Of a DNA stretch of 64,000 nt, positions 6,998-63,800 are shown one piece after another; positions within the stretch are counted from its first letter, which is position 1, and every line of letters starts with the position of its first letter. Origin of the DNA: Paraspadella gotoi (Eukaryota > Animalia > Chaetognatha); contig CM119267.1 in assembly GCA_051294375.1 (NCBI GenBank), positions 1,185,601-1,249,600 on the forward strand. The letters run 5' to 3'. A program made the translations under genes and the position numbers. The notes beneath the pieces were generated by a model. That model worked only from the letters and a program-made list of their open reading frames with translations, was not told the DNA's origin and ran no database searches.

Positions 6998-7620
6998 GGT
7001 CCTCAATGATGACTCCTTATCATTACTTTGCTCTTCTTTCTTTACTTTATTCCTTGTTCCTCTCTCCTTACTTTATTCCTTGCTCCTCTTTCCTCACTTA
7101 TTCTTTGCTCCTCTCTCTCTTAACATCATTTTTTAATCCCCTCTGCTTCTCTCTTTTTTTTCTTTGCTCCTCTGGCTTCCTTCTCCGCTCCACTCTTCTC
7201 CTCTTTGCTCCTGACTCTTCGATGACCAATGGTCATTGACCATCGACGAACCGCGTGTGCCAAAAAAAAAATCAAAAACAAAACTCAACCAACCAAATCC
7301 CAACAAAACACATGAATTGATCGATTCACTCTGACCCTTAATCGTTTGGGCCAAGCAACGTCCTAAATAAATAATATTTATTGAATTATTTATCTAATAG
7401 GCCCAACACGATGTATCACCACCCGATTGCCTCTTTCTTGTCGCAAGGGAATCGCATTTTGATTTCCGAGATAACCAATTTCATTTTAACCTTTTTGATA
7501 ACAAGATTAACCTAACCTCTTCTATTTCTCGTTACTATCTGCGCGTTACACTTATTATTTATTTTCGTAACTTATATTATATTATATTATATTTATTTAA
7601 ATATTTAAAAAGAGTATATA

Positions 7621-9062
7621 CAGAAGGCTTCATATTATAAAATGATGTACCCCTTTTTTGTGACCAGAATCTGTTCCTACCAAACTACCCGATCAAATTT
7701 AGTGAAATTTTACATTTAGAGTGCTAATGACTATATAAATGGAACTATCGATGCGAATTTTGAATATTCAACGCCTGACAAGAGATACAGGGCCCTGGAG
7801 GGCCAAAAAATGCTAAATTTTTTTTTTCATTTTTCAAAATTTTTTAGTAGCATCAGGTGCATTGACGTTTTAAACATAAGAAAAAAACATTTGAGAACTA
7901 AAATTGTTAAATTTGCAATAATTAAGCATGGTTGAAGATGCATGGTTCATTGTTTTACTTCCAATTTTCCCAAATTATTCCAAATTTGACTTTAACTGGT
8001 GATGTTCATGAAGCTAAAAATTAAGGTAAATGAATATTTTTGAGGTAATAAATACGTTTTTGTGGAAAAGTAAACGTCTTTGTAACTGTTCAAAACAAAA
8101 ATAATAAAAAAATTCGAGAAAAATTTTTGATCATTTTTTGCCCCAATGGGTGACCCCCCGGGGGCCCATATCTCGGCTCAGCGGTCAAATATTGAAATTC
8201 GCCTCGATAGTTTTTATTGTATTCACATGGGATCATTCATTTCCAAATTTCAATAAATTTGGTCAGTAGTTTTCTCGGAACGAGTACTGGTCACAAAAAA
8301 GGGGTTGTGGCGGTATATTCACACCGCCTCACGTCCACCATCCGTCAGCAAATCCATTGGCTCAGAGGGGGAACACACCATCCAGGCGTAGTGTTCCATC
8401 CACAGTTCTAATGACTTCCCTCTGCGTTGGCAAAGCGAGACCGTCCTAGGGTAACCGCCGCCAGTGACTGGAGGCGTCACTGAGGGTCGGAAGCCCCCAA
8501 AGCCAACAGTGAGATGCCCATCCCAATGGGCATCACAGGCAACCCGGCTGTTGCCATAAGTGGTGAGCCCTACTATCAAACATGCAACCTTCTCAGGGTG
8601 CGTCCGACAAACGCCTATGCCCTGCCGACTTCGGGTACGCTACGACAAACGCCTATGCCCCTGGGGTACGCTACGACAAACGCCTATGCCCCCACAACTC
8701 GCGCTCTCTCTCTCTCCCACTATGGTAACAGTCTTGTCAGACACCTCTCAGGCTTGAGGAACCTGAGTGATGTCTTGGCCGGGATCCTGTGGCGGTATAT
8801 TCACACCGCCTCACGTCCACCATCGTCAGCCAAATCATTGGTGGGAACACACCATCCCAGGCGTAGTGTTCCATCCACAGTTCTAATGACTTCCCTCTGC
8901 GTTGGCAAAGCGAGACCGTCCTAGGGTAACCGCGCCAGTGACTGGAGGCGTCACTGAGGGTCGGAAGCCCCCAAAGCCAACAGTGAGATGCCCCATCCCA
9001 ATGGGCATCACAGGCAACCGGCTGTTGCCATAGTACCTCATTTTATAATATGAAGCCTTCTG
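7621..9062. mobile_element. Non-autonomous TIR element (MITE, CAG..CTG ends, TA-flanked; Tc1/mariner-like) interrupted by a TRIM-like insertion
   Basis: TIR cagaaggcttcatattataaaatg / cattttataatatgaagccttctg; uninterrupted relative at 59048-59760. Confidence 0.85.
8306..9032 (+). mobile_element. TRIM-like miniature LTR retroelement: LTR 8306-8558, PBS 8561-8573, internal region with 3 tandem repeats, LTR 8788-9032
   Basis: Two ~250-bp direct repeats tgtggc..gccata; tggtgagccctac 2 nt after the first repeat; inserted inside the right TIR of the host MITE; PPT and TSD not clear. Confidence 0.7.
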
Positions 9063-9347: not shown

Positions 9348-12300
9348 ATGAACGATACCGAATCCTACAACTCCTTCTACCATGAGAAGGCGGCGGAGGC
9401 CAAGGACGAAGTGGAAGAGAAACTCGGGTTCAAACCCCAAAAGATCGTAGTCTACAACAGACTCCTTCCGTACGCGGAGGATCTCATCCTGGAGGCGGGG
9501 CACAACCTCGCCGAGATCAAGGCCAACCTGGGATGCGCCCTTCTCAAGAGGGAGATTCGCCCTGGGGTGAGGGAATGGGGGAGAAGGGGGGCGGAGATGG
9601 GAGGGTGGCTTTGGTTGGGATTTAAGGCGGAGATAGGTTAAAGCGGGTGATTAAGAAAAAGAAAAACCAGTGGCTGCCCCAATACATGTTAATCGTTTTT
9701 AGAGTTACTTTAGATTTACAAAAATGACAAAAAGATAAAAAAATTTACTTTCTCTTTTGTTTACTTTAAATTTAAACTCTTATCTTTTTCCTTGATTTTC
9801 CTATATATACAGTACCGGAAACCTAGAATGTCGTAAGTCTGTACATGGGATAACTTTTCCATTTATAGGATAAATGGCTTTAGGATTTTATAGGAGGTTG
9901 CCTGGATGTCTGGCTATGCCCATTTAAGCAATTTTTAAAAAAAATAATCTTAAACCACTTAAAAATTGGGTCAAAATTTTTTTAAAAAACTTGCATAGCT
10001 CCAATATATTTTAAATTTTTTTCTTAAAATTTTGCTAAATTGTACTCAAGAGGGTTTGTAAACTACTGTAAAAATATTGTTACTATCAAAAAGTTTTTTT
10101 CCATATTTATCAGTGCTAATATTTTAGATGGGTCATTTTTTCAATGATGCATAACTTCCTTATTTGTGAATATTATGGTTTTTAAATTTAGTAATAGGTG
10201 GGCCTTGGGTAGTCCTACAATACATATAAATTTCAATCATTTTGAAAAACTTTTTGACACAGGTCAAAATTTTTTTTACAAAATTCAATTGTCAATCCTG
10301 CTAAAAATATTATTGCAAATAATGTTATTCTTTGCCTATAAATCAGTTAAAACATATTTAAAATAAGCCTTAAGCAAAAAATTTTTCTCAACATTTTTAA
10401 AAACTCATTTGCATATTGTTGCATTTTATATTTTTTACATTTTTTCACATAAAAGTAATCCATTTTTTAAAATTTTGTATACAGATAATATATAATCAGA
10501 CCTTTAAAAATATACCATCAAATCTAATTTTTAATAAATTTCAAATATTTTAAATATATTTTAAAATTACTAAAAATTAGGATTTTAATAAGCATTCTGC
10601 TAACTTTTTCAAAGTGGGCATCGTTGAAAAGAGGGCAACTCAAGGATTCCAAATATATAATTTTTTTACCAAATTTATTGTCCCAATGCTGAGATAATTC
10701 TTTCCAAAGTGCTCAAAAATTGAAAAAAACACTACTTTTTAATCGTTAATAAAAAATGCTACTATGATAGTTTTGTTTCAATACTTGGTAACTAGGTCAA
10801 GAATTGTTCATATTTTGTGGTAATGTCATGTCCAGGGAATAAAATAAATATTATAGTAGATTCCTCAATCGATTTTTAAATTTGGCAGAACATTTTACTC
10901 TTTTTTACTAAGTTTTTAGAGTATGATAAACGTTTCTCTGATTACGCAAAATAGAATTTGAGAAATCAAAAGTTAATAGTACCAATAGTTGGTGTTATCT
11001 CTCAAATAGATGGAAAAAAAACCTTGTTTAAAAATTTGATCTGGAATAGGGGTAACTTAGGCGTACCAATGGCATCGTCCATGCCAATCGTTCTTTCAAA
11101 TAATTTTTTTTATTTAATACATTTGAAAGGGGGAAAAAGGAAATTAGAAATGCTGGTGGCATGAAAGTTATAAAAAATCTGGGCATAGTGACTTGAAAAT
11201 CATGACCTTTTATGTCTTGCGTAATGGGGGCTGTAAATAAACCCAAAAAATTCAATCATTAAGTCAGTCAATCAACCCTTTCAAATAGGTTGTTCTACGA
11301 AATTTTTTAGTGAAGAAAAAAAAATTGAATGAAGAGAAAAAATTTTGCAGAACAGTCTATTTGAAAGGGTTGATTGACTGACTTAATAATGAATTTTTTG
11401 GGTTTATTTACTGCCCCCATTACGCAAGACATATAAAGTCATAATTTTCAAGTCACTATGGCCAGATTTTTTTTAAATTTCATGCCACCAGCATTTCTAA
11501 TTTCCTTTTTCCCCCTTTCAAATGTATTAAATAAAAAGAATTATTTGAAAGAACGATTGGCATGGACGATGCCATTGGTACGCCTAAGTTACCCCTATTC
11601 CAGATCAAATTTTTAAACAAGGTTTTTTTCCATCTATTTGAGACATAACACCAACTATTGGTACTATTAACTTTTGATTTCTCAAATTCTATTTTGCGTA
11701 ATCAGAGAAACGTTTATCATACTCTAAAAACTTAGTAAAAAAGAGTAAAATGTTCTGCCAAATTTAAAAATCGATTGAGAAATCTACTATAATATTTATT
11801 TTATTCCCTGGACATGACATTACCACAAAATATGAACAATTCTTGACCTAGTTACCAAGTATTGAAACAAAACTATCATAGTCGCATTTTTTATTAACGA
11901 TTAAAAAGTAGTGTTTTTTTCAATTTTGAGCACTTTGGAAAGAATTATCTCAGCTTTGGACATTAAATTTGGTAAAAAAATTATATATTTGGAATCCTTG
12001 AGTTGCCCCTCTTTTAATGATGCCCATTTGAAAAGGTTAGCAGAATGCTTATTAAAATCCTAATTTTTAGTAATATTTAAAATACATTTAAAATATTTAA
12101 AATTTATTAAAAATTAGATTTGATGGTATATTTTTAAAGGTCTGATTATATATTATCTGTGTACCAAAAATTTTTAAAAAATGGATTACTTTTATGTGAA
12201 AAAATGTAAAAAAATATAAAATGCAACAATATGCAAATGAGTTTTTAAAAATGTTGAGAACAATTTTTTGATTTAGGCTTATTTTAAATATGTTTTAACT

Positions 12301-15300
12301 GATTTATAGGCAAAGAATAACATTATTTGCAATAATATTTTTAGCAGGATTGACAATTGAATTTTGTAAAAAAAATTTTGACCTGTGCCAAAAAGTTTTT
12401 CAAAATGATTGAAATTTATATGTATTGCAGGACTACCCAAGGCCCACCTATTACTAAAATTTAAAACCATAATATTCACAAATAAGGAAGTTATGCATCA
12501 TTGAAAAAATGACCCATCTAAAATATTAGCACTGATAAATATGGAAAAAAACTTTTTGATAGTAACAATATTTCTACAGAGTTTACAAACCCTCTTGAGT
12601 ACAATTTAGCAAAATTTTAAGAAAAAAATTTAAAATATATTGGAGCTATGCAAGTTTTTTAAAAAAAATTTTAACCCAATTTTTAAGTGGTTTAAGATTA
12701 TTTTTTTTTAAAATTGCTTAAATGGGCAATAGCCAGACATCCAGGCAACCTCCTATAAAATCCTAAAGCCATTTATCCTATAAATGGAAAAGTTATCCCA
12801 TGTACAGACTTAAGACATTCTAGGTTTCCGGTACTGTACGTTTTCTTTTTTTTTCTTTTTTTCTTTTTTTTTTTTTCTTTTTTTTTCCTTTTTTTCCCAT
12901 CTTCCCTACTTTACTTCACCCAGGTGAGCCACTGGATGGGACGCCTCGACAAATTCATTCGCCTTCACGGTCACATGTTCTCCAAAGAGGATCACGTCTT
13001 GTTCATCAAGTGATAATTTAAAAAGATAATTATAATTTTAATAGTTAATAATTTGAATATAAATATCGCAGGGCTCTCTTCGACTTAATGGTGACTCCCC
13101 ACTTGGAGTTCACCCTATTGGCGAAGACGGCGAATCTGCTGGTTCTGTTGATGAAGAAACGACATTTGCTGTCGCCGAAAGGTCAAAGAAAAACTATTAA
13201 CAAAAATCTTGGTTATTAATAAATTTGCCAAATCTTCCTCCTTCCCTTTCTATTACAGACTTGGAACTTTCCTGGAAGCCCCTCCACAACTTGCTCGAAT
13301 TCTGCCTCTACAACAAATACGAATCTCACGGCCTCATCCTGATTCCTAAGAATCTGGAGAACATCCTCAAGAACGTCGTCCGCACGTGCAGGCCTTACTT
13401 TGCCACGTCGTGCACGCGCGAGATGCTGGAGGAGTGGCGCCCTCTATTGTGTCCCTTCGACGTCTCCATCACGGCGAGTAGGATTTCGCAATCGATGACG
13501 ACGACGATAACGACGACAAAGTTTACATCGTCGATTAGTAATTTCTTAAATGGCTTATATTATACAAAAGCTTTTAAAAAAGATAACGTTTAAGATGAAA
13601 TGGTTGTACTAATTTCATAGAATATACATTTTACATTATACAACTAGGAACTTTGATTTCAAAGTGATGCGCTAGTTATTAAACATGCATTAGTACTTTA
13701 AATAGAGCATGATCGCATGATCGAATTTGATTAAGCTCACTTCTCTACTGAGGATTTTCCAAGATTTTTGTTATATAAAGCCTATTATAAAAAACGTACG
13801 AGATAAAGTTACACCGACTGACTCACCGACCGAAAAGTACTTTTATATCAGAAGACGAGTGAGATTTCTTAATCATTGATAACCGAGTCAAATTCTCCGA
13901 AAACCTACTTACTCTCTACTTTCCAGAAAGGACTGTTCTATCTGGAACTCTTCCTGCCGACACTTCTCGCCCCCGAGGACAGCGACCAAGGATTCCGTCT
14001 TTGGTTCGACGAGCTTATTCTCCTCTGGGATTCCGTGACAAACTCTCCCTCCTTCGAGAACCCCCTCGTCTGGCTCTTCGCCCGTCTCGCCTTCGACAAC
14101 GTTGGTCGCGTGGATTGGGTGCCTTGGATTCCAAAGATCTTCAGTCGGATCATGAGGAGCTTTAACCTCCCGACGGCGGGACATCTCAATCTTACGGGTT
14201 CTTTACTTCAAGTTCCATTTCTTTTTTTTTTAATTTTTAAAACATTTAGATACGAATTTTAATTTCTAATTGGGTCGGGAATCGTTAATTTTTTTTACAA
14301 TAGCCCCGTCGGAAACTTAAGTGAGACACATTTTACACTAAATTTATTATTCCTTTGATAATGTTTTTTTTTTAAAAAGAGGGTCAAAAAAATGAAATAT
14401 CTGTAGTTTTTTAAGAATAATTATTTTAACAAAAACATTTAGTTTAAATTGTTTAAAATACTTTTTAATTAGTTATTGCAAAGACCAATAACAAATTAAA
14501 TTTAAACTGAATATTTATTAAGGCCAAAAATCGCACGAGAATTATGAGATGACGCCGGTTGTTGCTTGGATCGTCGCTTTATTGGGCGGAGGCAGCGAAG
14601 CCCAGACTCACCTCGAGATAATGCTTAAGGTAAGGACAAAGAAGCTTTTTTTTTTGCTTCGAGAAGTGGATTTGATTGATTGATTGATTCTCAGTAATTT
14701 ATCTCTTACGTTATGTATCCTTTATCCTCTTTAGTCCTTCAATGCCCCTTTATTACTTTAATACTCTATCAAATCTTTGTCTCGCTCTTCGCCTCTTAAT
14801 CTGTTCCCCTTTGACCCCATAATTTCTCCCCAATCATTCGTGAATCATCCCTTTCACAAATCTCTTTCACAAATTCCTTTCAAACTTCCTCCATCTATCA
14901 ATCAACCCCCCCCCCCTAATTTCAGGCCATGGCGTCCTTTTATCATCCTTCCAATTACGGCAAATGGACTTCGAGTCTCTTGAGATTCATGAATAAACTC
15001 TCGACGCAATTCGTGAGACGCCTCCACCGCGAGCGCTATCAAGCCGCGAGCTGGGAGACGCCGGTTCCTGCAGAAAAGAAACTCACCGACGCCGACGTCA
15101 CCAGATTCGTCGAGTCTCTACTTCCGGTTCGTCGCGCCTCTAGCGGTCATTTATTTTCGGAGAAAACTTTTTTTTTTAAACAAAATGCTTTCTCTTCCCC
15201 TCAGGTTGTTCATTTGTCCATGTTCTCTAAACTGGGAAGCTCTGATTCCGCGTCGACCCTTCACCAATTGTCGAGCATGCGGCCTGAGATCGTCATCCCT

Positions 15301-20972: not shown

Positions 20973-23900
20973 ACACTTTTCTCCCTTCTAAGGTGCTCTC
21001 TACGTTCTGATCGGTCCCAAACACCGCTGCCTGGCGGTCAAGCCCCACTGGTCGGTCATCTCGCGCCTGTGGCCAGCCATCGTTCAGGCTCAGCATTCGG
21101 AGAAGCCCTCGATCCAACTCCTGATGGACGAACTCATTGATAAGATCTCTAAGAACATGGACACCATCGCCATCGACTTCGCGATGCAGGATTCCACGCT
21201 CGCCTTCGCCTCTCAATTTTGGTTGCTCACCGACTTATCATTTAAATTGGGTTATGCGATTTTTAAAATCCAAGTTGTTTTGTTTTTCCCTTCAGGTCTA
21301 GTCAGCAATCCCTTCCCCTCCCATCCCTCCCGCCACCTTCCTCAGAGGAGATGTCATCCTGCGCTGCGGCGGAGTCGGCGGCTGTCGCCTCCAAAACCCG
21401 CGAGTACGAGAGCCTCGTCCAGCGTCTCGTCGGCCTCATCGTCTCCGGGAATTTGAGATGGAAGTTCGCTCAGGTGGCGCTGGCGTTGACGGGGATGCTC
21501 TTTCGCTACGATCGCCCTCTGCCGGAACCGGGCGTCAAGGTCGTCACGGATCTGTTGTTGCACGATACCGTCCTCGTCAGGTTGGGGGGGAGGTTGGAAT
21601 GGGTGAATGTGGTGAGGTTATGAGAGATCATGAGATCGTGTTTTTATGAGAATGAGAATTTTATTTCATATCAATAATGATACAGTAGCATATATCGGCA
21701 ACAAAATAAACCAAATAAAAACAGAATTAAGACGTTAACGTGAAGGAAAACTAAGCTACGAGATCATTTCTATATTTCCATAGAAATAAGACAAAACTTT
21801 ATTTTTCGTCAAAGTTAAACGTTTTATGAATCGTTCATGACTAATTTTGAAAATTTTATAAATGTTAGGGTAACCAAAACATTCTCTAAGGTTTCTGATG
21901 CTTTCCCATCGATGCCAGCCAAAGATCTTACGAATTCCATTATTAATGGCTACATTTAGTTGGTACATATCTTTACAACGAAAGTCTTTACCTTCACAAC
22001 CATATTGTAGTACTGAGACACAATTACTGGAAAATAATTGTAACAAAACTGCTTCATTTGGTTTGTGTAACGCATTCAAAATACTATTGGAGGACATTAG
22101 ATCAGGTGTGGGATCGAAATCAAAATTATTTCCTGATTTTTAGTTATAGATATTTCCAACTCGTGACTCTTTCGATAGGACATGAATCAACATTTAAATT
22201 GAAAATTAAAAATTTTATATTTTTATCAACAGAAAAACTAATGAGACATTCACATCCTTGAAAAAAAGCGTTTTGCGAGGGTAATAGTCGTTTCGAAATA
22301 AATGTTTCCGATTGATTCAAAACAAATATATTTACGATCGCAAATGTCCGAAATTTTGGGAGAGCAAATATTGCTGACAGCAGGTGGTTATATGATGGAG
22401 GGGGGAAATCCCGCTTCCTACAAACGCAAGCATAACCTTTTCCGCTGTGCGGTTTTAAGATGGTAGAAGAGGCGTTGGTGTTTTTGTAGCCTTATAGTTA
22501 AAAGTTATAGTTAAATGTAGACCGTGGAATAAAAGTTTGTTAATTTCACTAGAAAAATGTCAATCTCTGGCGTCTCCGCACTCTTGAAGCAGTCGAAGCG
22601 GCCGCACAAAAAAGTCCAGATCGACCTAAACTCAATGGCGGGTAAGTTTGTTGACTATGCCCTTCGATAAGTATTGGAGGAGGCCGTCTGGCACTCCGTT
22701 ATTTTCCCGAAACCATTTCCACAGGGCCAGAGGTGTCCGCACGCAGCAACGGGGTCGTCCGCCCAGGAAGTCGCGCGGACAACGCGTGGATGGAGTACGA
22801 TCCTTCGTCGGTCCCTCGAACGGAAGAGGACTGGTCCACCGCCAACTTTGTGGACAAGACCCACTGGGGCTTCTACTGTTGGCCAAAGCGGCTCGAGGTC
22901 TACGCCCCTCGGGATAAACAGCCCGTCGTACCGCAACCTCGTGAGGCGATGGATCGAGTTGAAGGTTGAAGGATTACATTTTTGTGTTTCAAATGATCGT
23001 TTCTGTCAACTCACTCTTATTTTTTTAAATTCGGTTTAGGAATAATCTACGACTTCTTTTCGTCCAAGGACAACGTGGACAAGCTCATCGAGTTTTTGTC
23101 CTTGGAGGAAAGAAAAGGAAAGGACAAGTTTAGTGCCAAAAGGTTTATCCTTTTTAAGGTGAGGCTTTAAAAGAAAAAAAAAATAGGAGCGAATATGATC
23201 CGATTTTTCCGCAATTGTCTCCCCAAGGGCCTCTTCCGCAACTATGGCCCAGCCTTTCTTCCTCTGCTTCGCCCACACCTGGAGAAGCTCTCAACCGACT
23301 CGATCGAGTCCAAGCAGAGGTGCGCCGCCGAGATCGTCGCCGGTCTCGTCAGGGGCTCCAAGCATTGGGCCTTCACCGACCTGGAGTCAATGTGGGCGTG
23401 GCTCGCGCCCCTGCTCGAGACCGCCTTCGCCAACATCACCACGGAAACGGTCGTAGACTGGGGCACCTGTATCGCCACCTGCTCCGAGTCGCGCGATCCT
23501 CGACGCATCCACTGGCTATTGGAGGTCGTCATGAAGGATCCGGTCAAGGGAGAGATCGATTCCTCCTTCAGGGACACCAATCATCTCTACGCGTTGCAGG
23601 GGGCGCTCTCGCAGCAGGTAAGGAAAACGAAAAGAGAAAGGGAAGCGACAGAGCAGCGGCAGAGCTGCGGAAGATCAGCGACGCAGCAGCTACAGAACGA
23701 GATTCCTTTTTTTTCTTTTTTAATCCAGGAATGGCGAGTTCCAACTCTCCTTCACCGACACCTCGAACAGGTTCTGCCTCACATCCACCACCCCTACAAG
23801 AACATGAGGGATCGCCTTGGATCTGTCTTGACTTCCATCTATCTCTACGATTGGACCTTTCCAGGGGGACCTGAATGCAGGTTGGTCGCTGAGGCAGGAG

Positions 23901-30008: not shown

Positions 30009-30069
30009 AAACATATGGCATACATATTTTTTATCATCATTCTCGTTCTTGTCGTTGTCCAATGTTCAT

Positions 30070-30589
30070 TAAGGCGTAGTAAAATTTCTAAATTTAATTT
30101 TAATTAAAATTCTAAAAGTAAGGAATGAACAATATTATACTAATGAACATTTATATAATAAAAAAAATTATATTAAATTTTACAATTTACGCAGTAGGCC
30201 ATATTTATATTAGTACTAAACCAATAAATGTTAAAATTTTAAAACAGTTTTTTCTAAGATTTTTTTGAAGATTTGGATTCGTCATAAAAAGTTGACAAAA
30301 AGAAATATAATTTTTTTAAAAAAATTCCTTCATAAAGTGGGTCAAAAATTAGAAAAATCTATATTTTAAGCTGAAAATTAATTTTTTATATATTAAATAT
30401 AGTTTTTTTAATTTTTAACCCACTTAATGAAAGAATTTTTAAAAATGATTTATATTTTCTTTTATCAACTTTTGACGAGGAATTCAAATCTGCATAAAAT
30501 TAATTTTTTTTACAAATTAATGTTCACTGATGGTATGTTGTTCATAATTGACTTTTAGAATTTTCGTATGTAACTTTCACTACGCCTTA
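30070..30589 (+). mobile_element. hAT-type MITE, copy 1
   Basis: TIR taaggcgtagt..actacgcctta; 8-bp TSD atgttcat. Confidence 0.9.
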
Positions 30590-33302: not shown

Positions 33303-35623
33303 ATGTTACAAGATCAAAGTTACGACGACGTTGTGCTGGAATTGAACCCCGACTCCCCTTCCCCTCCGAGATCGCCGGGTCACCCGCCCGGGGCGACCCT
33401 GACGGTCACAGCTCCGCCCCAAACGACTCAGCAGTGGGCACTTGGCTTTGGCAGGGCCAAGCCAAAACAAGACTCTTCTTCGCGTCGATGGAATGTCGGT
33501 CGCTCTGACGCTCCGCTTCCGAGAGGGCGCGGAAACAATCAAAAGTCCCGCGATCGTAAACAGTTTTAAAAATTTTGTTTTTTTGCCCCGGAGCAACTCT
33601 TATAAGTCACTTTTCAGTCGGTCCGTCCGTCTGTCTGTCGGGAAGAAACGTTAGTGGATTTGTTCATTGCCTTTTAAATGCTCATAAATCGGGTGATACC
33701 ACATCAATTAAATTGATATTTGGTTAAAAAGTAATGTACCATAAGAGCTTCAATATATAATATATGTAAATTATATATCATACTGATCAAAAATTAAATA
33801 CTGCATAATTCATAAAATACTGAGTTTTTTAGTTGATTTTTGGCAGATTGGTGAAGTACCAGTTAATGCTTTTTGAGCTTATATTTTATATTTGTATATA
33901 ATGTATACTATATTGTATAGTAGAGCGTAGTGAAAGTTACGTACGGAAATTCTAAAAGTCAATTATGAACAACATACCATCAGTGAACAACTGAACATTA
34001 ATTTGTAAAAAAAAAAAAAATTGTTTTTTAATTTTCGCAGTAGGCTATATTTATATATAGTACTATCTTTATAAAATTAAAAAATTTTCAAATAGGCTTT
34101 TCTTAATTTTAATAAAAGTTGATAAAAGAAAATATAAATCATTTTTAAAATTTTTTTCATTAAATGAGTTAAAAATTTAAAAAACTATATTTAATATATA
34201 AAAAGTTTCTTTTTAGTTTAAAATATAGCTTTTTCTAATTTTTGACCCATTTAATGAAGAAATTTTTAAAAAAAAGTAATATTTCTTTTTAATAACTTTT
34301 TATGACGAATCCAAATCTGCAAAAAAAATTTAGAAAAACTGTTTTGAAATTTTAACATTTATTGGATTAGTACTAGTATAAATATGGCCTACTGCGTAAA
34401 TTGTAAAATTTATTATAAATTTTTTTATTACATAAATGTTCGTTAGTATAATGTTGTTCGTTCCTCACTTTTAGAATTTTAATTAAAGTTAAATTTAAAA
34501 GTTTTACTACGACTTATTGTATAGTTATGTGATCATTGAAAAATACGTTCACAAAAGTGGTTTATTGGAGCTCAACATCTTGAACTTGTGTGAAAAATAA
34601 ACCTTTTTCCAAGGGTTATCGATCGGTGCGCGAAAAATTAAAGTCGATTGAGCCAGTAGCAACACTTGAAAATCAAAGCTTTTAAACGAAATTGGGAAAA
34701 ATCAATTTCCCACTTTTTTCTGAAAATTCGAAATAAGGAAAGAATAGTTTCAATTTGAGACAATCGATAAAATATATTGTTATTATGTTGTATGAAAAAT
34801 GTTACGATCGCGCGATTTTGTGGCGAAAAAGAATTAAAGCTATAGAGGAGGGCCCGTTCGGTCGAGGCGCGGCCATCCCTCGATTTTCGATCTCCAGCAA
34901 TCGACGCGTCGTTGGCACGACTGATCTGCGCCTCGAATCGCCCCAACTCGTCCGCGTCGCCAATCAGTTCGATGGACCATCGGATCGAAACCTCAAGTTG
35001 CCGGAAGTCGACGGCTCCTTAGATCCGGCCGAGAAATCCTTAGATTCGAATGGCGGCTGCGGTGGCTGCAGCGACTGCGGCGGCGGTGGCGGCGGCGGCG
35101 AACAAGCCCCGAAAAACGAGAAGCCCTTTTCTTTTCGCGGCTTCAGGGAAATTCTTCCGCTAGGTTGTGAGGGGATGTAACTAATGTATATAACGTTAGA
35201 CATAGACAGTACTTAACCAGATAGTTTTACTTTTATTTTAAATATGTATACAAAGTATATAAATTTTACGCGACTTCCTCTTGAATTGACTTCAACAGCC
35301 GAGATGGAATATTGGGACGGAACCGGCCAATCGTCATCGCCGACGAAATCGACGCCGCTTGAAACGGAAACGGCGCTCGATTCGACGCCGACAGCCTCGG
35401 TGCCCGCCTTCGACACTTCTGTCCTCCAGACTCTTCAAGGTCTCGAGCCTTTGCCTCAAGACTCGAATGCCAAGTCGGTGGACCTGAACGAGGTTTACGG
35501 CCACGAAGACGACGACGACGATCACGACGAATTAATCAGTCTTAGTTCCTCCGAGGGACCAAAAGGGATTAAAAAGTAAAGTTATGGTTAATTCATTGGG
35601 ATTTTTTTATTACAAGTTCAGGG

Positions 35624-35679
<56 letters not shown>

Positions 35680-38600
35680 GTACTACCACATCCGTAAAGA
35701 AATGCTTAAAAGAGACGTAGAAAAATTGGCGATGAAGACGAGTTCAACCATCACCGAAGATCGAATGGCATCGCGACGCTTCTTAGATGGCGTTCGTCAA
35801 TCTCTGATGGCAGAAACCAAGTCTTCGACGACAGAATTGTCATCCTCGATGGCAGATCCTCGGGCGAAGCGGCCCGAGCATCGCAACGAAGAGTTTCACT
35901 CTAATGACGCGAGTAGCGCCACCGCCGACTTAGGCGCCACCGTCGACGCCGCCGCGAATGAAAACTGGGGCGCGGTCCCGAAAATGGCGAGGGCGTGGCA
36001 ACGAATCAAAACGCAAGCGAAGATTCAGAGCGGCGTCGAGGGACACCTCGGCGTCGGACCGCCGATCATTGACGTCGCCGCTTTTAAAAGATTCCGGCGT
36101 CGTCTTAGCCAATCAAGATGGAGTCACGATGAAAATATCCAAGTTCCTTCTGGCGATGAGATTAAAAATCTCTTAATCCAATTTGATGACGAAAGGTTGG
36201 AGCCTGGTTCATTTGGCTCCGACAACTTTGATGACCAAACGCGACTCCTGCAAGTCAAACGGAATAATAATGATAATGATAATAATTTTAAAATCGAAAC
36301 GAGTCCGCCTGATACCAAACATGTCAAAGATAGAAATGTCAAACGTTGGAGTCACTTGGACCATCCAAAGGTCAAGCTTCATTTCGTCAACTCGAGCGCG
36401 GGCAACTCCAAGTTGTATTCGGGTCAATGTGGCGAGAAACGGGTCCCAATTCCCTTGGGTTATTGTGATGATAAAGAAATGATTCGAAATCCTGGTCATT
36501 TGAACCCAACCACAATCTCGAGTGACTCGAAATCTCTCAAAAATGTAAAGCCACTTGAGAGCGAATTAGATTACTCAAATCTACCAAACGAGCTAAAGTT
36601 CCAGTTTTCTGTTAATATGTCTCCTGAGACAAAAGTTAAATCTTTATCTGATTTTACGAAATTCGTTGAGGTTCAATCTCGCTCGCCCGACGCCTGCGAC
36701 CACAACGAAGATTCCAAACCACAAGCTCTAGTTAACAATAAGAAGGTTCACAAAGCCCCGCTCCAAACGAATCGCGCTCACGTTCAATCTTATTCAAGTG
36801 ATATCGAAGAACCAATTGTCCAAATTTGTTCAATTCCCACTGAAGATCCCAATCTTATTCCATCCAATGAACCTTCCACCAAAACTATTTCCATTCACTC
36901 AGAAGATCTTCCATCTTTGTCGAATGACCCTGATTCACCTCGAAGTCAATATCTTCCGATTAACCTACAAGATGACAAAGCTCAGACCAACTCGGACAAG
37001 GACATCCTCGACGGGGAGATCCAGGAGATCCGCGACCGGATTGACGAGATACTTGGTCGTCTGGCCATCGATAAGGGAAGCCCCTTCGACGCGGCCTGGC
37101 TGCTTTACGATCTCGTCGTCGGGAAGATAATCGCCTTAGGAGAATACGATAAGGAGAGGGTGTTGTTCAAAGAGGTTAGCCAAATACGTTTTTTTATCGT
37201 CGCAATCGCTAAGCGTTTGCGACGATATTGTATCGCTTTTGCCCATAAATGGCATCGTCGTCGTCGTCGTCGTCGGCGTTACAAATTATAGATCGCCTTT
37301 TTTATGATTAAATTTGGGTGTATGAAGCTAAAAATTTATATACAGCTTCTCATCAACGATGTGCTTAAAATTGAGTCTGGACAGTTATTAAATATTAAGG
37401 CGTAGTAAAATTTCTAAATTTAACTTTAATTAAAATTCTAAAAGTGAGGAACGAACAACATTATACTAATGAACATTTATGTAATAAAAAAATTTAAAAT
37501 AAATTTTACAATTTACGCAGTAGGCCATATTTATACTAGTACTTAACCAATAAATGTTAAAATTTCAAAACAGTTTTTTCTAAGATTTTTTTGCAGATTT
37601 AGATTCCTCATAAAAAGTTGATAAAAAGAAATATAACTCTTTTTGAAAAATTCCTTCATTAAGTAGGTCAAAAATTAGAAAAAGCTATATTTTAAGCTGA
37701 AAATTAACTTTTTATATATTAAATATAGTTTTTTTAATTTTTAACCCACTTAATGAAAGAATTTTTAAAAATGATTTATATTTTCTTGTATCAACTTTTG
37801 ACGAGGAATTCAAATCTGCAATCAAAATTAAGAAAAGCCTATTTTGAAATTTTTCGATTTTATAAGGATAGTACTATGTATAAATATAGCCTACTGCGAA
37901 AATTAAAAAACAAAAAATAATTTTTTTTTACAAATTAATGTTCACTGATGGTATGTTGTTCATAATTGACTTTTAGAATTTTCGTATGTAACTTTCACTA
38001 CGCCTTATTAAATATGTTTTGTTTACGTTTTATCAAAACAAACAAATTTTTTTCTCTTTTATTTTCATATTTCTTTTTCTCTCTCTTTTCTCTTTTAATT
38101 ACATGTCTCTCTCCCTCTCTCTTTTCCCTAGTCATAGGGGAAAAAAACGAGCCTGCAGCTGGCTCTGCAGGGGCTTATTCTTTTTCTCTCTTTTCTCCTG
38201 CTGTTTCTGCTGCTGCTTTTTGAGTCTGCAGCTGGCTCTGTAGTGGCTCTTTCTTTTTCTCTCTTTTCTCCTGCTGCTTCTGCTGCTGCCTTTTGATTTC
38301 TTTCTTTTCTCTCTCTCTCTTTCTCTCTCTCTCTGCGTTTTTATTAAAAAAAAAAAAGAATTAGGATTGAACTCGTAAAATTGAACTCGTAAAAGTAGGC
38401 ATAGCATTCGTGCATGTTATCCTTTTGCTATTTTTCAGAAACTGTAACTTTAATTTTCTTGCGTACTTTATTATTTTTTTTATTGACAAAATAGAATTTT
38501 TCTTTGTTTATAATTTATTTTTTTTTAGTATCAAAATTTGTCCAGATCAATCCAGATCAATCCAGATCAATCCAGATTTTTCTTATGCTATTGCGACGAT

Positions 38601-44550: not shown

Positions 44551-44655
44551 TTAAAATGATAACATCAAAATATTGTTTTTCCTTTTTTTCGTTGCCTTAT
44601 TTTTTGAGTTGGAAAATGAATTGTTTGTTTACATACGAATTTTATTAAGAAATAA

Positions 44656-44700
44656 AAATTTCGGACATGTTTCGGTTTCAATGTAAGCCTTCATCAGCGC
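44656..44700 (-). ncRNA. Minimal type I hammerhead ribozyme motif (PLE type)
   Basis: gcg-CTGATGA-aggcttacattgaaacc-GAAA-catGTC-cg on the minus strand. Confidence 0.7.
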
Positions 44701-44799
44701 AAAAACGTATTGATTTGTGAAACAAATATTTTTACAGACTCTCTCTTTTCAAACTTCAAAGTCTGTAAAAATATTTGTTTCACAAATCAATTCATTTTT

Positions 44800-44844
44800 G
44801 CGCTGACGAAGGCTTACATTGAAGCCGAAACATGTCCGAAATTT
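44800..44844 (+). ncRNA. Minimal type I hammerhead ribozyme motif (PLE type)
   Basis: gcg-CTGACGA(44803-44809)-a-ggctt/aagcc stem II-GAAA(44827-44830)-palindromic acatgt stem III-GTC cleavage site (44834-44836). Confidence 0.8.
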
Positions 44845-45619
44845 GTTTTATTTTCTACCTCAAACATATAAAATAAAATAAAATAAATTTAAATTTATTA
44901 TTAATTATCAAAATTATATAAATTTGTATTACTGCACAAAAAAAGTATATATTAACTTACTTTGAACTATAACATAATCATTACCTAAACGTTAATAATA
45001 ATAACAATAATTACAAATATAAAAAAGTTATGATATCTGAATTCCTTTAGTTTTTTGGGTTTTTTTTTTTTTTTTGAGAAATTATCCTCTTCCCGTTCTG
45101 TTTTGTTCCTCTTCTTTTTTCGTTAATTTATTAAGAAAAACCTTGCTCTTTATTTTCCCATAGACCTCTAGGAATGCCCAGGAATGCCAGGAATGCCCTT
45201 TGATCCTTGGCAAACAAGGGAATCGTCTGATTTCCCTGATTGGATTCTATCAATCTACGTTTTCCTTCTGCTCTCAACATTTTGAGGGCAGCAATTTGCC
45301 CATTGTCGTCGTCGTCGTCGTCTCTGTCNNNNNNNNNNCCCATTGTCGTCGTCGTCGTCGTCGTCGTCTCTGTCTCCCGCCGAGATTTCATTCTGTCTCC
45401 GCAGTCAAAAAGGCTGCTGCAGCTGCTGTTCTGACGACTGCGGCCTCTGCTGCCCAAAAGCAGCCGCTTTAACTGTTTCAAACTTTTGATTCTTGAGAAT
45501 CCTCGCTTTTCCTTAACTCTTGTTTTTCCTTTGTTTTCCTCCTTTGTTTTGTTCCCAAAAACAGAATAACAACAACGGCTTTGGCTCGATAACCAAAAAG
45601 AAGAATTGTTATTATTATA

Positions 45620-52039: not shown

Positions 52040-52829
52040 CCAAGTGGAAGCAACCCTCGCAATTCGGACCCGCCGAAGCCTTAGCCGCCGCCGCCGCCAT
52101 GGGTTCTCTCCGCTGTCCTTTCAGCCGGGGCACAACTTTTAAAGACTCGGCCGCCGCTACGGCCGCGACAGTCGGGGCCGGGTGGGCGCGGCTCGCCAAG
52201 GATACCCCCGCCGCCAAGGCAAAAAATGGAGGGGGAAATTAATAATTATTATTAATTATAATACTTTATTATAATTGGTCTTGCTATGAAAACTTTTTCT
52301 TTTAATATTTACTTTTGCCAGATGTTTTTTTGTTTATCTCAATGACTCTGTCTCTAGTTAAAGAAGACAAAAGACAGTAACCCGTATTTAGCATTTAAAA
52401 TTTTTCATTTTCAATCTTTAAAAAAAGGAATATACTATTTAATTGTTTCCGCGATAATCTATTGTCCTCAGAAACCAGCCGAGGCTTCAAAGTCTGCAGA
52501 GAAACCATCATCTCTTCCTTTGATCTCCGACTCTGAATCCGCGCGGAGCTGCATCGTCCGTCAGTTGGATCAAGAGGACGTCGGCCTTGAGACGCTCATC
52601 CCATTTGTCTACAGGTTGGGCGGCCTGGTGGGGATTTACATTTTGGGTTGATCAGATTGAGAGGTGTAAGCATTAGCTAAAATAAAAGGAGACAGGATTT
52701 GATCTCGTGACTTTAGAGGTCGCAGTCTCAATCGCTACCATTACGCCATCGGGCGTAATTACAAATTGATATCATAAAGTTCAACATATTTAGTCAATTG
52801 ATAACTATTATTAATGTATTGTTCTTTTG

Positions 52830-52875
<46 letters not shown>

Positions 52876-54011
52876 AAAAAGGTTATTTGGTAATTCTATA
52901 AACGATCTGTTTTCACTCTGCTTTCTCTCTGAATAAAGCTAAACACCAAAACGTCGACCTTTTTATTCTAACGATAATAATCGTTTACAAGTGTGATACA
53001 AATTACAGAGAATGTAATGTTAAAATATCCGCTCGGTCAGACATCCACAAATGGTGGATCACGTCGGGCTCACCATTTGTGGATGTCTGACTGAGCGGAT
53101 ATTTTAACATTACATTCTCTGTAATTTGTATCACACTTGTAAACGATTATTATCGTTAGAATAAAAAGGTCAACGTTTTGGTGTTTAGCTTTATTCAGAG
53201 AGAAAGCAGAGTGAAAACAGATCGTTTATAGAATTACCAAATAACCTTTTTAGAGAGAGAGAGAGAGAGAGAGAAGAGAGAAAGACAGAGACAAAAGAAC
53301 AATACATTAATAATAGTTATCAATTGACTAAATATGTTGAACTTTATGATATCAATTTGTAATTACGCCCGATGGCGTAATGGTAGCGATTGAGACTGCG
53401 ACCTCTAAAGTCACGAGATCAAATCCTGTCTCCTTTTATTTTAGCTAATGCTTACAGAGGTTCTAGAGTACATCAGATATCAGATCAATAATACGTTGGC
53501 GATACTTAATAATTATAAGGTATTTGGTAATTGTTTTGCCTCCTTGGCGAATTGCAAATCGTTTAAAATTGTATACATTTCCCCAATGTTTGCGAAATAC
53601 ACCATTAATTAAAATTGTAGAGATTCTAATGTATTTCTCACTTCAGCCACTACCCGCCCAAAGATAAGCGAAGATTTGGAGAAGAAGAGATGAATCTTTT
53701 CCAGTCGCTCGTCGTGGATCGTCGACCCGAAGGAAGGAAGAAGCTCAAGCATCTCCTGCTTAAGGTCAACAAAAGACAATTTTCCTTTTTTGGAAAAATG
53801 TCAACTTTGTTTTCAACTTTCTTTTTTAAAAAAAAATTTATCGTTTCGTCAATATATTTTAGTTTTGATAATAACAATGAACATTCTTTCCTTTCAGGTT
53901 TTACAAGACTACCATCCGGACAAAGTTGATCCCAACCACGGAGCTCAATGGAAGTTCATTTCCGAAGAGATTTCCAAGAGGCTTAACAATCACTTCGAAC
54001 AATTGAAATGA
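52040..54011 (+). CDS. Protein with C-terminal J (DnaJ-like) domain; 3' exons ~52040-52218, 52472-52614, 53647-53764, 53898-54011; start not located
   Basis: ..FVYSHYPPK..KKLKHLLLK|VLQDYHPDKVDPNHGAQWKFISEEISKRLN; HPD motif. Confidence 0.65.
52665..53456. mobile_element. Palindromic inverted-LTR element: LTR(+) 52665-53049, central tRNA-Trp PBS(-) 53058-53075, LTR(-) 53078-53456; 4-bp TSD gagg
   Basis: Each arm runs TGTAAGC..CCACA with tataaa and aataaa; aa spacer then TGGTG; TSD gagg at 52661-52664 and 53457-53460. Confidence 0.85.
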
Positions 54012-59047: not shown

Positions 59048-59760
59048 CAGGCTTCATATTATCAAATGTGGTACCCATTTTTTGTGACCAGAACACGTTC
59101 CGAGAAAACTACTGAATAGAATTTAATGAAATTTTGCATGCGGAGTACCAGTAGTGATACAAATGGAACTATCGAGGCGAATTTTTACATTCCACCCCTA
59201 AGCTGAGATAAGTGGCCCTGAGGGGGCAGCCCCTGAGGGCAAAAAATGGACAAAAATTGTTTTCAAATTTTATTTTTTTTTGTTTTGAACAGTTGCACAG
59301 ACGTTTACTCTTTCACAAAAACGTATTTATTACCTCAAAAATATTCATTTACCTTAATTTTTAGCTTCATTAACATCAGCAGTTAAAGTCAGATTTGGAA
59401 TAATTTGGGAAAATTGGAAGTAAAACGATGAACCATGCATCTTCAACCATGCTTAATTATTGCAAATTTATAAATTTTAGTTCTAAAATGTTTTTTTCTT
59501 ATGTTTAAAACCTCAATGCACCTGATGCTACTAAAAAATTTGAAAAAAAAATTTAGCATTTTTTGGCCCCCCAGGGGTCCACCCCCAGGGTCCTGTATCT
59601 CTTGTCAGGGGTTGAATATCAAAATTCGCCTCGATAGTTCCATTTATATAGTCATTAGCACTCTAAATGTAAAATTTCATTAAATTCGATTGGGTAGTTT
59701 GGTGGGAACAGGTTCTGGTCACAAAAAAGGGTACTACATTTTACAATATGAAGCCTTCTG
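59048..59760. mobile_element. MITE, uninterrupted relative of 7621-9062 (opposite orientation)
   Basis: Same TIR (gcttcatatt..aaatg..gtaccc..ttgtgaccagaa) and internal sequence. Confidence 0.85.
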
Positions 59761-60120
59761 TAAATGAAAATTTCTGTCAATCTGTGCTTCGAGCGTCGCA
59801 ACCAGGATTGTATTGGAGAAGGAAGAGTCGACGACATCTTCAAAGGCGTCTCCGAGGGAGACTGGAATCGGTCGCAGATTGCGGAAATGACATCCACGTT
59901 CAAATCCAAGTTGACCCCTCCAATGAAAAAGAACCAAAGTTTTAGAATCAATGTTAATTAATGTTAATGTTGATCTTTAATCTGAAATCGAAAAAAAAAA
60001 TGGTAAGCAAAGATATAAAATTAATTAATTTATTTAATTTTAATTACCAGTGATACTTTAAATCCTTAAAAATCTATAATTTTCTCTTCGATCGAATTGA
60101 ATGACATAAGTTGAATTTTA

Positions 60121-61854: not shown

Positions 61855-63399
61855 GTAAGAGGGGAAGGGGGGAGAGATGGAGGGAGGGAGGACAGGTGGG
61901 GAAGAGAAGAGGATAAATGAGGAGGGAGGAGAGGGAGTAAGGCAGGGAAGAGGGAGGAGAGGGGAAGAAGGGCAGGGAAGAGGAGGTAGGGAGGAGAGGG
62001 GAGGAAGGGCAGGGAAGAGGGAGGTAGGGAGGAGAGGAGAGGAGGGCAGAGAAGAAGAGGGAGGTAGGGAGGAGAGGGAAGGAAGGGCAGAGAAGAGGGA
62101 GGTAGGGAGGAGAGAGATGAGGGGACGATGAGAAAAAGAAGGTCAGGCGGAATTAGAGTAGAGATAGGATAGAGATTGAGATAGGATTAGAGTAGAGATA
62201 GGAAAGAATGTGAATAGTTGATATTATTAAAGATAAGTAGGGAAGTGAGAAGGAGAATTAAATGTTAAGAAAAATTCATACTTATTAAGATAATCAATGA
62301 AATTCCAAAGATTGAAGGTTGGAGAGAATCGGGTGAGGATGATTTTAACTTACCTCATGCCTAACCCTATCTTTAAGCAAATATAACCTAATCTCTAAAA
62401 CTAATTCCTAATCCATAATCTCTAAAACTAATCCCTAATCCATAACGTAATCTAACCTAATCTCTAAAACTAATCCATAATCCATAACCTAATATTTGAA
62501 TTTAAAAAGTAAATAAACAGTAAATAAACAAACCAACGTACAGACCGATGGACAGACCGACGGACAGACAGACGGACAGACCGACGGACACACCGACGGA
62601 CTGACCGACCGACCAAAAAGTGACTTATAGAGTTGATCCGCGAGCGGCGCAACTAAAAAGTCGGTGGAGCTAATCTGAGTGAGTTTAGTCGCGACGTTTC
62701 TTGACGAGTTGATTGGCAGACTTGGGAATCCATCCCTGACATTGACGAGGGTTTAGGACCAACTCTGGGCAATTGGGAAATGGGAATAGAGTATTGGGCT
62801 TTGGGAGGACGGAATTGGCCATTGGGTTATGGAAATGGGAAATGGAAATAGTGTTGGGGTATAGGAATAGGATTCATTGGATACAGGGCAATGGGAAAAT
62901 GGTTTTGTGCAATTACCAGTGAGATGTGGGGAATCGGGCATTTGGCCTTTGGCCTTTGAGAATTGGCCACTGGAAAAGTTGCTTTGGAACTGAGGCCAGG
63001 ACGAAGGTCGCTTAGAGTTAGGGGGCGACTAGATTCTGAAGGATTAAGTATTCGGGGAAAATTAATGGGAAAAGGGGATAATAATTAATAGAAGATTGGA
63101 AAAAAAAAGAAAAAAAAATATTAAAAAAACTTACAGCGAAATTAGAAAAAAAACTAATTTTTCCGGTCTTCTGGAAAGAAAAAAATTTGAGCAAACAATG
63201 TCGGATCTGCCTACGATAATTAAGCGGTAATCTGCGAATCAGATGATAAATCATTATAATTCTTTCAATTTGTGATCCTAAGTGATCATAACAGATCGTA
63301 CCATACCAAACCAATAGCTGCGCCAATACATGTAAATCGCTTGCAAAGAATTAAACTGAACTGTTACTATGGTACAAATAATTTATTTGACTAATATTT

Positions 63400-63800
63400 T
63401 TTTCAACTTGAATCATTTTTAAACTCGCATGATTTTTTAAACTCACATCTTTTTTTCAACTTGCATCATTTTTTCAATTTGCATCATTTTAACCTGCTAA
63501 AATTTTTCAACTGGCAATATTAATTTTAACTTGCATCATTTTTTAAACTTGCATCATTTTTTCAATTTCCATCATTTTTTGTAATTTCCATCATTTTTTA
63601 ACTTGCATAATTTTTTTAACTTGCATCATTTTTTAACTGCATCATTTTTATCTATTTTTCCAATTTCCATCATTTTTGTAATTTCCATCATTTTTTAACT
63701 CGCTTAATTTTTTTAATTTGCATCATTTTTTTAACTTGCATCATTTTTTTCACTTGCTTCATTTTTTAACTTGCATCATTTTATCATTTTGCATCATTCA
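63400..63800. repeat. Degenerate ~17-18-bp tandem repeat (ttgcatcattttttaac)
   Basis: About 20 imperfect units. Confidence 0.85.

Follow-up and report, generated by a model that had tools for sequence, protein, structure and literature searches.

A palindrome of two LTRs joined U5-to-U5 across a single tRNA-Trp primer-binding site, probably an integrated strong-stop product

The genome of the chaetognath Paraspadella gotoi contains a short palindrome that raises the question of how two long terminal repeats (LTRs) can come to lie inverted around a single primer-binding site (PBS) and within one target-site duplication (TSD). In the window, i.e., the whole 64-kb stretch of DNA that was analyzed, this element occupies positions 52665-53456 (792 bp), starts with TGTAAG, ends with CTTACA and is bordered at both edges by GAGG on the + strand (52661-52664 and 53457-53460), an identity of flanks for which the chance is about 0.002 at the local composition. 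Its arms (52665-53056 and 53071-53456) leave 14 unpaired bases in the middle. From left to right it consists of a 385-bp repeat of the TGT...ACA type on the + strand (52665-53049) with its CA end at 53049, the spacer AA followed by TGGTG, the first five nucleotides of the PBS (53050-53056), an extra G (53057; C on the minus strand), the reverse complement of TGGTGAGCCCGACGTGAT (53058-53075), TT, and an inverted 379-bp repeat on the - strand (53078-53456). The minus strand across the centre reads CA-AA-TGGTGAGCCCGACGTGAT, with a 2-nt AA spacer (53077-53076) between the right LTR and the single full PBS (53075-53058), and the two LTRs are 28 bases apart (AA, TGGTG, G, the 18-mer and TT). The left LTR carries TATAAA at 52897 and AATAAA at 52932, in the order promoter then poly(A), and a (CT)n tract at about 52830-52875. 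The best reading of this arrangement is that two LTRs of a low-copy, tRNA-Trp-primed retrotransposon family were joined U5-to-U5 across one 18-nt PBS.

A first-pass annotation of the locus had described a near-perfect palindrome of this length with LTR-like arms and 4-bp GAGG flanks, and this description is confirmed. It had also placed TGGTG after each arm around the centre, a layout that stands, except that one extra G (53057) separates the 18-mer from the TGGTG of the second arm. The slight differences between the arms that it listed (microsatellite length and one substitution) are real; however, outside the (CT)n tract, which is altered in the right LTR, there are two substitutions, at 53092 and 53172, and not one. 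Each is a transition at CpG, as is expected of two genomic copies with a separate history; CpG makes up only 7.6% of positions, and the chance that both differences fall there is about 0.006. A search of the palindrome against Rfam gave four matches to miRNA models, all below the gathering scores; a miRNA identity was rejected, the matches being explained by the hairpin.

The identity of the arms can be read from other copies in public sequencing runs. The stretch is contained in nine runs of one organism, and contigs from four of them (four samples, two studies) were aligned over 52100-54000, with a threshold of 31 letters for bridging a junction; such contig data show presence only. Over the left LTR the contigs carry the left-arm alleles and no other letters. 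In all four runs other copies follow the reference up to the CA at 53049 and not a base further, the sequence beyond being unrelated, which is expected of 3' or solo LTRs. In all four, AA-TGGTG also runs on after 53056 into one and the same non-reference sequence, including a record of 2,113 nt in run X5, so that the same seven letters precede the family PBS in 4/4 runs. Loose ends lie exactly after 53456 in three of the four runs, with a poly-C run in X1, and a polypurine tract (PPT), GGGGGGGA, stands directly before the first TG in one contig of X1 (record 7) and in mixed consensus in X4 and X5. Since the other copies share the CA end and have a PPT upstream and a PBS with internal sequence downstream, the arm is a true LTR, with U3 facing outward and U5 inward.

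These contigs also bear on the reading of the element as a foldback MITE of a Ginger-type DNA transposon whose tRNA-like centre arose by chance. TGT...ACA ends and a 4-bp TSD are typical of Ginger1 and Ginger2 too (PMC2836005), and several foldback MITEs occur in the window; however, elsewhere the arm is an LTR in direct orientation with PPT, PBS and U5-to-flank junctions, the arms measure 385 bp against terminal inverted repeats (TIRs) of 40-270 bp, and the TSD is neither CCGG/CCGT nor within RTATAY (PMC2836005). This origin is hardly credible. The arms are the LTRs of a conventional direct-repeat family of the same organism, as the first-pass annotation had proposed, by the PPT, the PBS with internal sequence and the common CA end in the run contigs; the annotation had also considered TIRs of Ginger or another DNA transposon, and in the contigs the arm is an LTR instead.

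Two other classes of element were considered and set aside. DIRS-1-like inverted-repeat retrotransposons have no TSD and no tRNA PBS and use a tyrosine recombinase, and the palindrome has a TSD, a tRNA PBS and a PPT-bearing parent. An identity as a terminal-repeat retrotransposon in miniature (TRIM) was rejected on the inverted arms and the lack of an internal direct repeat and of a PPT.

The per-record depth of the LTR contigs is 3.6-6.8x that of the flank contigs, a depth that is no copy number. There is a hint that the LTR family is low-copy, with little room for many palindromes, and the rest of the 64-kb window contains no further copy of the arm. Within the right arm, at 53141-53180, contigs of X1 and X7 match a 40-base LTR stretch with four differences and then diverge, and a loose end of X4 falls there too; a second LTR family with a common U5 motif may possibly lie behind these matches.

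The same runs show how the palindrome sits in the genome. The left junction, from the flank to the U3 end on the + strand, is present in contigs of X1, X5 and X7, and the right junction, from the U3 end on the - strand to the flank, in contigs of X1, X4 and X5, so that both are present in X1 and X5. Most junction records extend 28-30 letters into the element, just below the 31-letter threshold, which is passed only by the left junction of X7 (154 letters). An empty allele is represented by one contig in one of the four runs (X4), which joins 52659 to 53456 and skips 796 bases (792 + 4); its short side is 30 letters long, six of which fit either side. No joint of a U5 end to either flank is listed among the contigs of the four runs. 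Two outward U3 ends within one 4-bp duplication are therefore supported beyond the assembly, although one of the runs may be the source of the assembly. Insertion as one unit with a 4-bp TSD, which the first reading had claimed, is borne out by both junctions and by the empty-site allele that it had suggested looking for.

The flank appears likely to be polymorphic as well: one-base insertions at 52230 and 52250 occur in X1 and X4, and X5 is without the one at 52230 (no cover at 52250). By eye, the palindrome appears to have inserted into a short intron, with a possible acceptor a few bases further on. Pfam gave no name to the three putative host exons beside the palindrome (three of ten proteins tested had any match), and no RNA data sets are listed among those containing the stretch. 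In a homolog search the best named invertebrate matches of the neighboring serine protease were spiralians, at 44-47% identity.

The 18-mer is identical in 17 of 18 positions to the 18-nt 3' fragment of mouse tRNA-Trp-CCA, tRF-3002a (PMC7555719), and its length is that at which retroviral plus-strand strong-stop DNA ends, 18 nt into the tRNA at m1A58 (PMC13191261). If about 60 tRNAs and 10 offsets are allowed for, at least 12/13 loop-side matches would arise by chance with a probability of about 4e-4. The PBS of the family, as read from the run contigs, is TGGTGAACCCAAC followed by ATTCGAA, and ungapped it is identical to the palindrome 18-mer in only 12 of 18 positions; in an alternative alignment 11 of the first 13 positions agree and, after a 3-nt gap, a run follows that would pair with the tRNA T-loop, the T-loop consensus being used for this reading of ATTCGAA. 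The position of ATTCGAA after the first 13 family-PBS positions recalls the sequence of lentiviral primer over-extension (PMC13191261).

Because the 18-mer matches the tRNA better than the family PBS does and stops where plus-strand strong-stop DNA stops, it is likely a copy of the tRNA and not an inherited family PBS. The identification of the 18-mer as a tRNA-Trp copy within plus-strand strong-stop DNA, made in the first-pass annotation, thus agrees with the match to the mouse fragment and with the 18-nt length. A family member with an undegenerate PBS may exist, since contigs drop rare variants, and in that case the 18-mer need not be a fresh tRNA copy. ARAGORN found no tRNA in the window. 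A 15-mer had 59 matches in viral contigs, of which 0/59 were followed by CCA, and they were read as chance.

A junction-like pattern had no matches in viral contigs and seven in metagenome contigs. Most of these seven unrelated loci have this 18-mer, with C at position 7, separated from a preceding CA by 1-3 bases, and all of them (7/7) have CACCA 3-6 nt beyond the tRNA-Trp PBS, which closes a TGGTG/CACCA mini-stem, a feature for which the search pattern selected. No tRNA gene was found in any of the seven (0/7). Three of the loci (L004, L006, L007) contain direct repeats about 1 kb apart and are TRIM-like, L003 contains tandem PBS-containing repeats, and Pfam gave no name to the ORF of L006.

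Such mini-stems are relevant to a rearrangement after integration, in which a conventional element, or two opposite nested elements, would have been reduced to an inverted pair through template switching during replication or through a deletion. Short inverted repeats are general sites of fold-back inversion (PMC4689423), and a CACCA 3-6 nt past a tRNA-Trp PBS, as in the seven loci selected for it, would provide a ready mini-hairpin. The family sequence past the PBS, however, is without CACCA within 30 letters, the break lies at PBS position 18-19, both ends of the palindrome are exact U3 termini with one 4-bp duplication around them, and the empty allele is a clean one; a rearrangement of this kind is regarded as quite unlikely.

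The 14-base centre, which is the base of the tRNA argument, is seen in the assembly only. Contigs across it were found in 0/4 runs, and the depth in the bin 53060-53123 is that of a record at 53123-53152, which gives no evidence either way. This lack of coverage is not informative, since the same tables miss junctions that are implied by the opposite ones: the left junction is missing in X4 and the right one in X7. Short connectors beside high-depth repeats are removed by assembly graph cleaning. The outer junctions could be real and the centre misassembled, or derived from amplification or extrachromosomal cDNA, the true interior being another, possibly longer, inverted structure. The support for the centre does not extend beyond the assembly, which is a draft with two 10-N gaps in the window, and inversion chimeras are a frequent amplification artefact. 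Against this, two outward U3 ends at one TSD demand an inversion point inside, a tRNA-like 18-mer unlike the family PBS cannot be invented by an assembler, the arms have private CpG-type differences, and the same assembly contains a 3-kb foldback with arms 96% identical. A false centre is on balance improbable.

That foldback (9810-12838) is a 3.0-kb AT-rich element, TA-CAGTACCGG...CCGGTACTG-TA, with a short asymmetric centre near 11290-11355 and no ORF of 100 aa or more; it is presumably a giant non-autonomous element of Tc1/pogo type in the region of a PSME4-like gene. The window includes further repeats: a 204-bp palindrome at 44650-44853 with a 19-nt loop and arms about 88-93% complementary, three copies of a MITE-like family of about 600 bp with long imperfect inverted arms (30067-30585, 33925-34516 and 37396-38003), two copies of another MITE-like element of about 700 bp with TIRs (7616-8305 and 59049-59765), and an array of 18-bp tandem repeats at 63380-63800. 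A frame of 127 aa on the minus strand (21756-22139) had no Pfam match, and we take it to resemble the C-terminal end of a LINE reverse transcriptase.

The evidence from ends, TSD and centre is brought together by an integrated, misfired strong-stop product, a core that is shared by both cDNA routes set out below and is considered probable. For the more specific proposal that two plus-strand strong-stop DNAs, both displaced, each used the 3' end of the other as a priming site, giving a duplex with two U3 ends that was integrated as one unit, the chances are about even. Reverse transcriptase would copy U3-R-U5 together with the AA spacer, then 18 nt of the primer tRNA, and halt at m1A58, which yields strand A. 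Since the family PBS matches the tRNA copy well only in the first 6 nt, strand A would be a poor substrate for the second strand transfer and would be displaced as a dead end. Strand B, a second strong-stop DNA ending 5 nt into the PBS, would then be held to strand A by a clamp of 1-2 bases, of which one was non-templated or misincorporated, before extension of both strands; the joint of A and B would have one additional base and an overlap of 0-2 bases. The letters at 53050-53056 would accordingly represent the 3' end of this shorter strand (or the folded-back template of the other route), and the extra G at 53057 is likely a base that was non-templated or misincorporated opposite m1A58. Non-templated addition of C and misincorporation opposite m1A58 by reverse transcriptase are possible sources of such a G. 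Both U3 ends would be taken by the integrase, likely one of Gypsy type with its 4-bp duplication, and after insertion two CpG transitions in the right arm and slippage of the microsatellite would complete the present sequence. In vitro, retroviral reverse transcriptases clamp 2-nt 3' overlaps and use non-templated ends in strand transfer (PMC3035444); this clamp needs a second strand annealed upstream or adjacent, whereas no such strand is demonstrated in the model for the palindrome.

The other cDNA route is an intramolecular snap-back, in which one strong-stop strand folds at the PBS, primes on its own G at PBS position 5, copies to the U3 end and is opened to a full duplex before integration. 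The expected sequence is no different from that of the two-strand route: one complete PBS and a loop of 14 bases. The junction that is observed would result if one or two C were added and paired with G5, and all the evidence for a strong-stop origin fits equally well; the junction letters are alike under both routes. However, the predicted fold-backs of the 3' end are not stable (0 to -3.7 kcal/mol, and in no structure is the 3' terminus paired), and a hairpin offers one duplex end, so that integration by two ends with a clean TSD would call for an additional strand displacement. Snap-back is thus a tentative alternative, and the mutual priming of two strands is favored over it. Of the first-pass proposal, strong-stop snap-back followed by integration, the strong-stop origin and the insertion as a unit are retained, and the intramolecular fold-back is less favored, no stable fold being predicted and a hairpin having only one duplex end.

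Whether the palindrome is a single event or a member of a class is a separate matter. A search of the element found no direct repeat inside it, a PPT is absent from its 28-base interior, and its longest stop-free frame is at most 62 codons. Since it is without a PPT, a direct R repeat and a transposase or other ORF, the palindrome is likely a dead end, with no means of further transposition apparent. Neither the window nor the seven metagenome pattern matches (0/7 with inverted arms) nor IMG/VR yielded a second palindrome. A non-autonomous class of inverted-LTR elements, which had been suggested if several copies existed, is not supported by these results and by the low-copy hint, and the palindrome is likely a one-off rather than the first of a new class. 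It is doubtful, though worth stating, that the mismatched PBS would cause frequent failure of the second transfer and so the repeated formation of palindromic cDNAs with two U3 ends, which would integrate at various sites and all end at tRNA position 59. If this were true, there would be a one-step, recurrent route from an LTR retrotransposon to inverted-repeat elements with TG...CA ends, raw material for MITE-like foldbacks and hairpin-RNA silencing loci against the family, and, with an integrase region caught between the arms, for DNA transposons of Ginger1 type. A transcript through the palindrome would form a long hairpin and could possibly be a source of siRNA.

The biological weight of a single dead-end copy is small. 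Its significance lies in preserving in the germ line, as a natural polymorphism, a replication intermediate that is known mostly through work on yeast particles and retroviral reactions. The tRNA-derived 18-mer beside a differing family PBS suggests that this animal Gypsy-type element, as Ty1 and Ty3, does not inherit its primer sequence, and the two outward ends indicate that the integrase likely accepts two U3 ends in vivo. They also suggest that one accident of reverse transcription can yield inverted TG...CA ends in a single TSD, although here no integrase gene was captured.

Among known retrotransposons, the parent family is a candidate member of the CsRn1 clade of Ty3/Gypsy (PwRn1, AgCR), in a comparison of PBS, TSD and ends. 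Elements of this clade have the PBS TGGTGA[G/C]CCCG for tRNA-Trp, a 4-bp TSD without sequence preference, ends of the TGT...ACA type, LTRs of 146-381 bp and a PPT directly upstream of the 3' LTR (PMC2582038). A CHCC Gag motif, the order PR-RT-RH-IN and the phylogeny of the reverse transcriptase are further criteria for the clade. The PBS pattern is exact in the palindrome 18-mer, which the family PBS matches in 11 of the first 13 positions, and the 4-bp GAGG duplication agrees with the clade (PMC2582038); in contrast, CsRn1 elements have direct repeats and gag-pol, and the palindrome has inverted LTRs and no internal region (PMC2582038). In Ty3 and Ty1 the plus strand made first, which includes the tRNA copy, is displaced to accumulate as a dead end, and the PBS of the genome is not adjusted to the tRNA sequence (PMC5371799), much as the family PBS differs from the 18-mer here. 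Mismatched PBSs are kept by families of endogenous retroviruses, too (PMC7472051). The dead-end product of yeast has 12 tRNA-derived nucleotides, and section 2.2 of that paper does not describe formation or integration of a palindrome (PMC5371799). TRIMs and solo LTRs are also short non-coding LTR derivatives with a PBS and 4-bp TSDs in animals, but the LTRs of TRIMs are direct, and TRIMs, with both PBS and PPT, can be mobilized in trans by retrotransposition, whereas the palindrome has inverted LTRs and no PPT (PMC10886601).

Ginger1 and Ginger2 encode a transposase between TIRs of 40-270 bp and have target preferences (Bao et al. 2010, PMC2836005). They share with the palindrome inverted ends that start with TGT (TGTNR; here TGTAA...TTACA), a 4-bp TSD and Gypsy-related integrase chemistry, but the palindrome codes for nothing and its arms are whole LTRs (PMC2836005). 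In the Ginger paper the route from LTRs to TIRs is described as unclear, and two separate insertions in opposite orientation are proposed (PMC2836005). A one-step passage from direct to inverted repeats would bear on the origin of the Ginger1 TIRs and offer an alternative to two chance insertions.

No description of an integrated LTR-PBS-inverted-LTR palindrome was found in the open-access literature by titles and the starts of abstracts, a scope outside which most older retrovirology lies. The integration of aberrant cDNA by an LTR integrase is known; the LTR palindrome with two U3 ends is the new variant. Its nearest precedent is provided by the Ty1 composite elements of Saccharomyces cerevisiae, in which a dead-end intermediate that ends in the PBS and two tRNA-derived bases became attached to other DNA before integration (Friedl et al. 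2010, PMC2939329). In both cases a dead-end plus-strand strong-stop product with a copied tRNA end was joined by erroneous priming or template switching and then integrated (PMC2939329). The tRNA copy measures 12 nt in the composites and 18 nt in the palindrome, and the partner was transformed foreign DNA in laboratory yeast (yku70 or integrase-overexpressing) as against a second LTR here (PMC2939329). Unlike the Ty1 composites, the palindrome has two U3 ends and is a natural, polymorphic insertion in an animal (PMC2939329).
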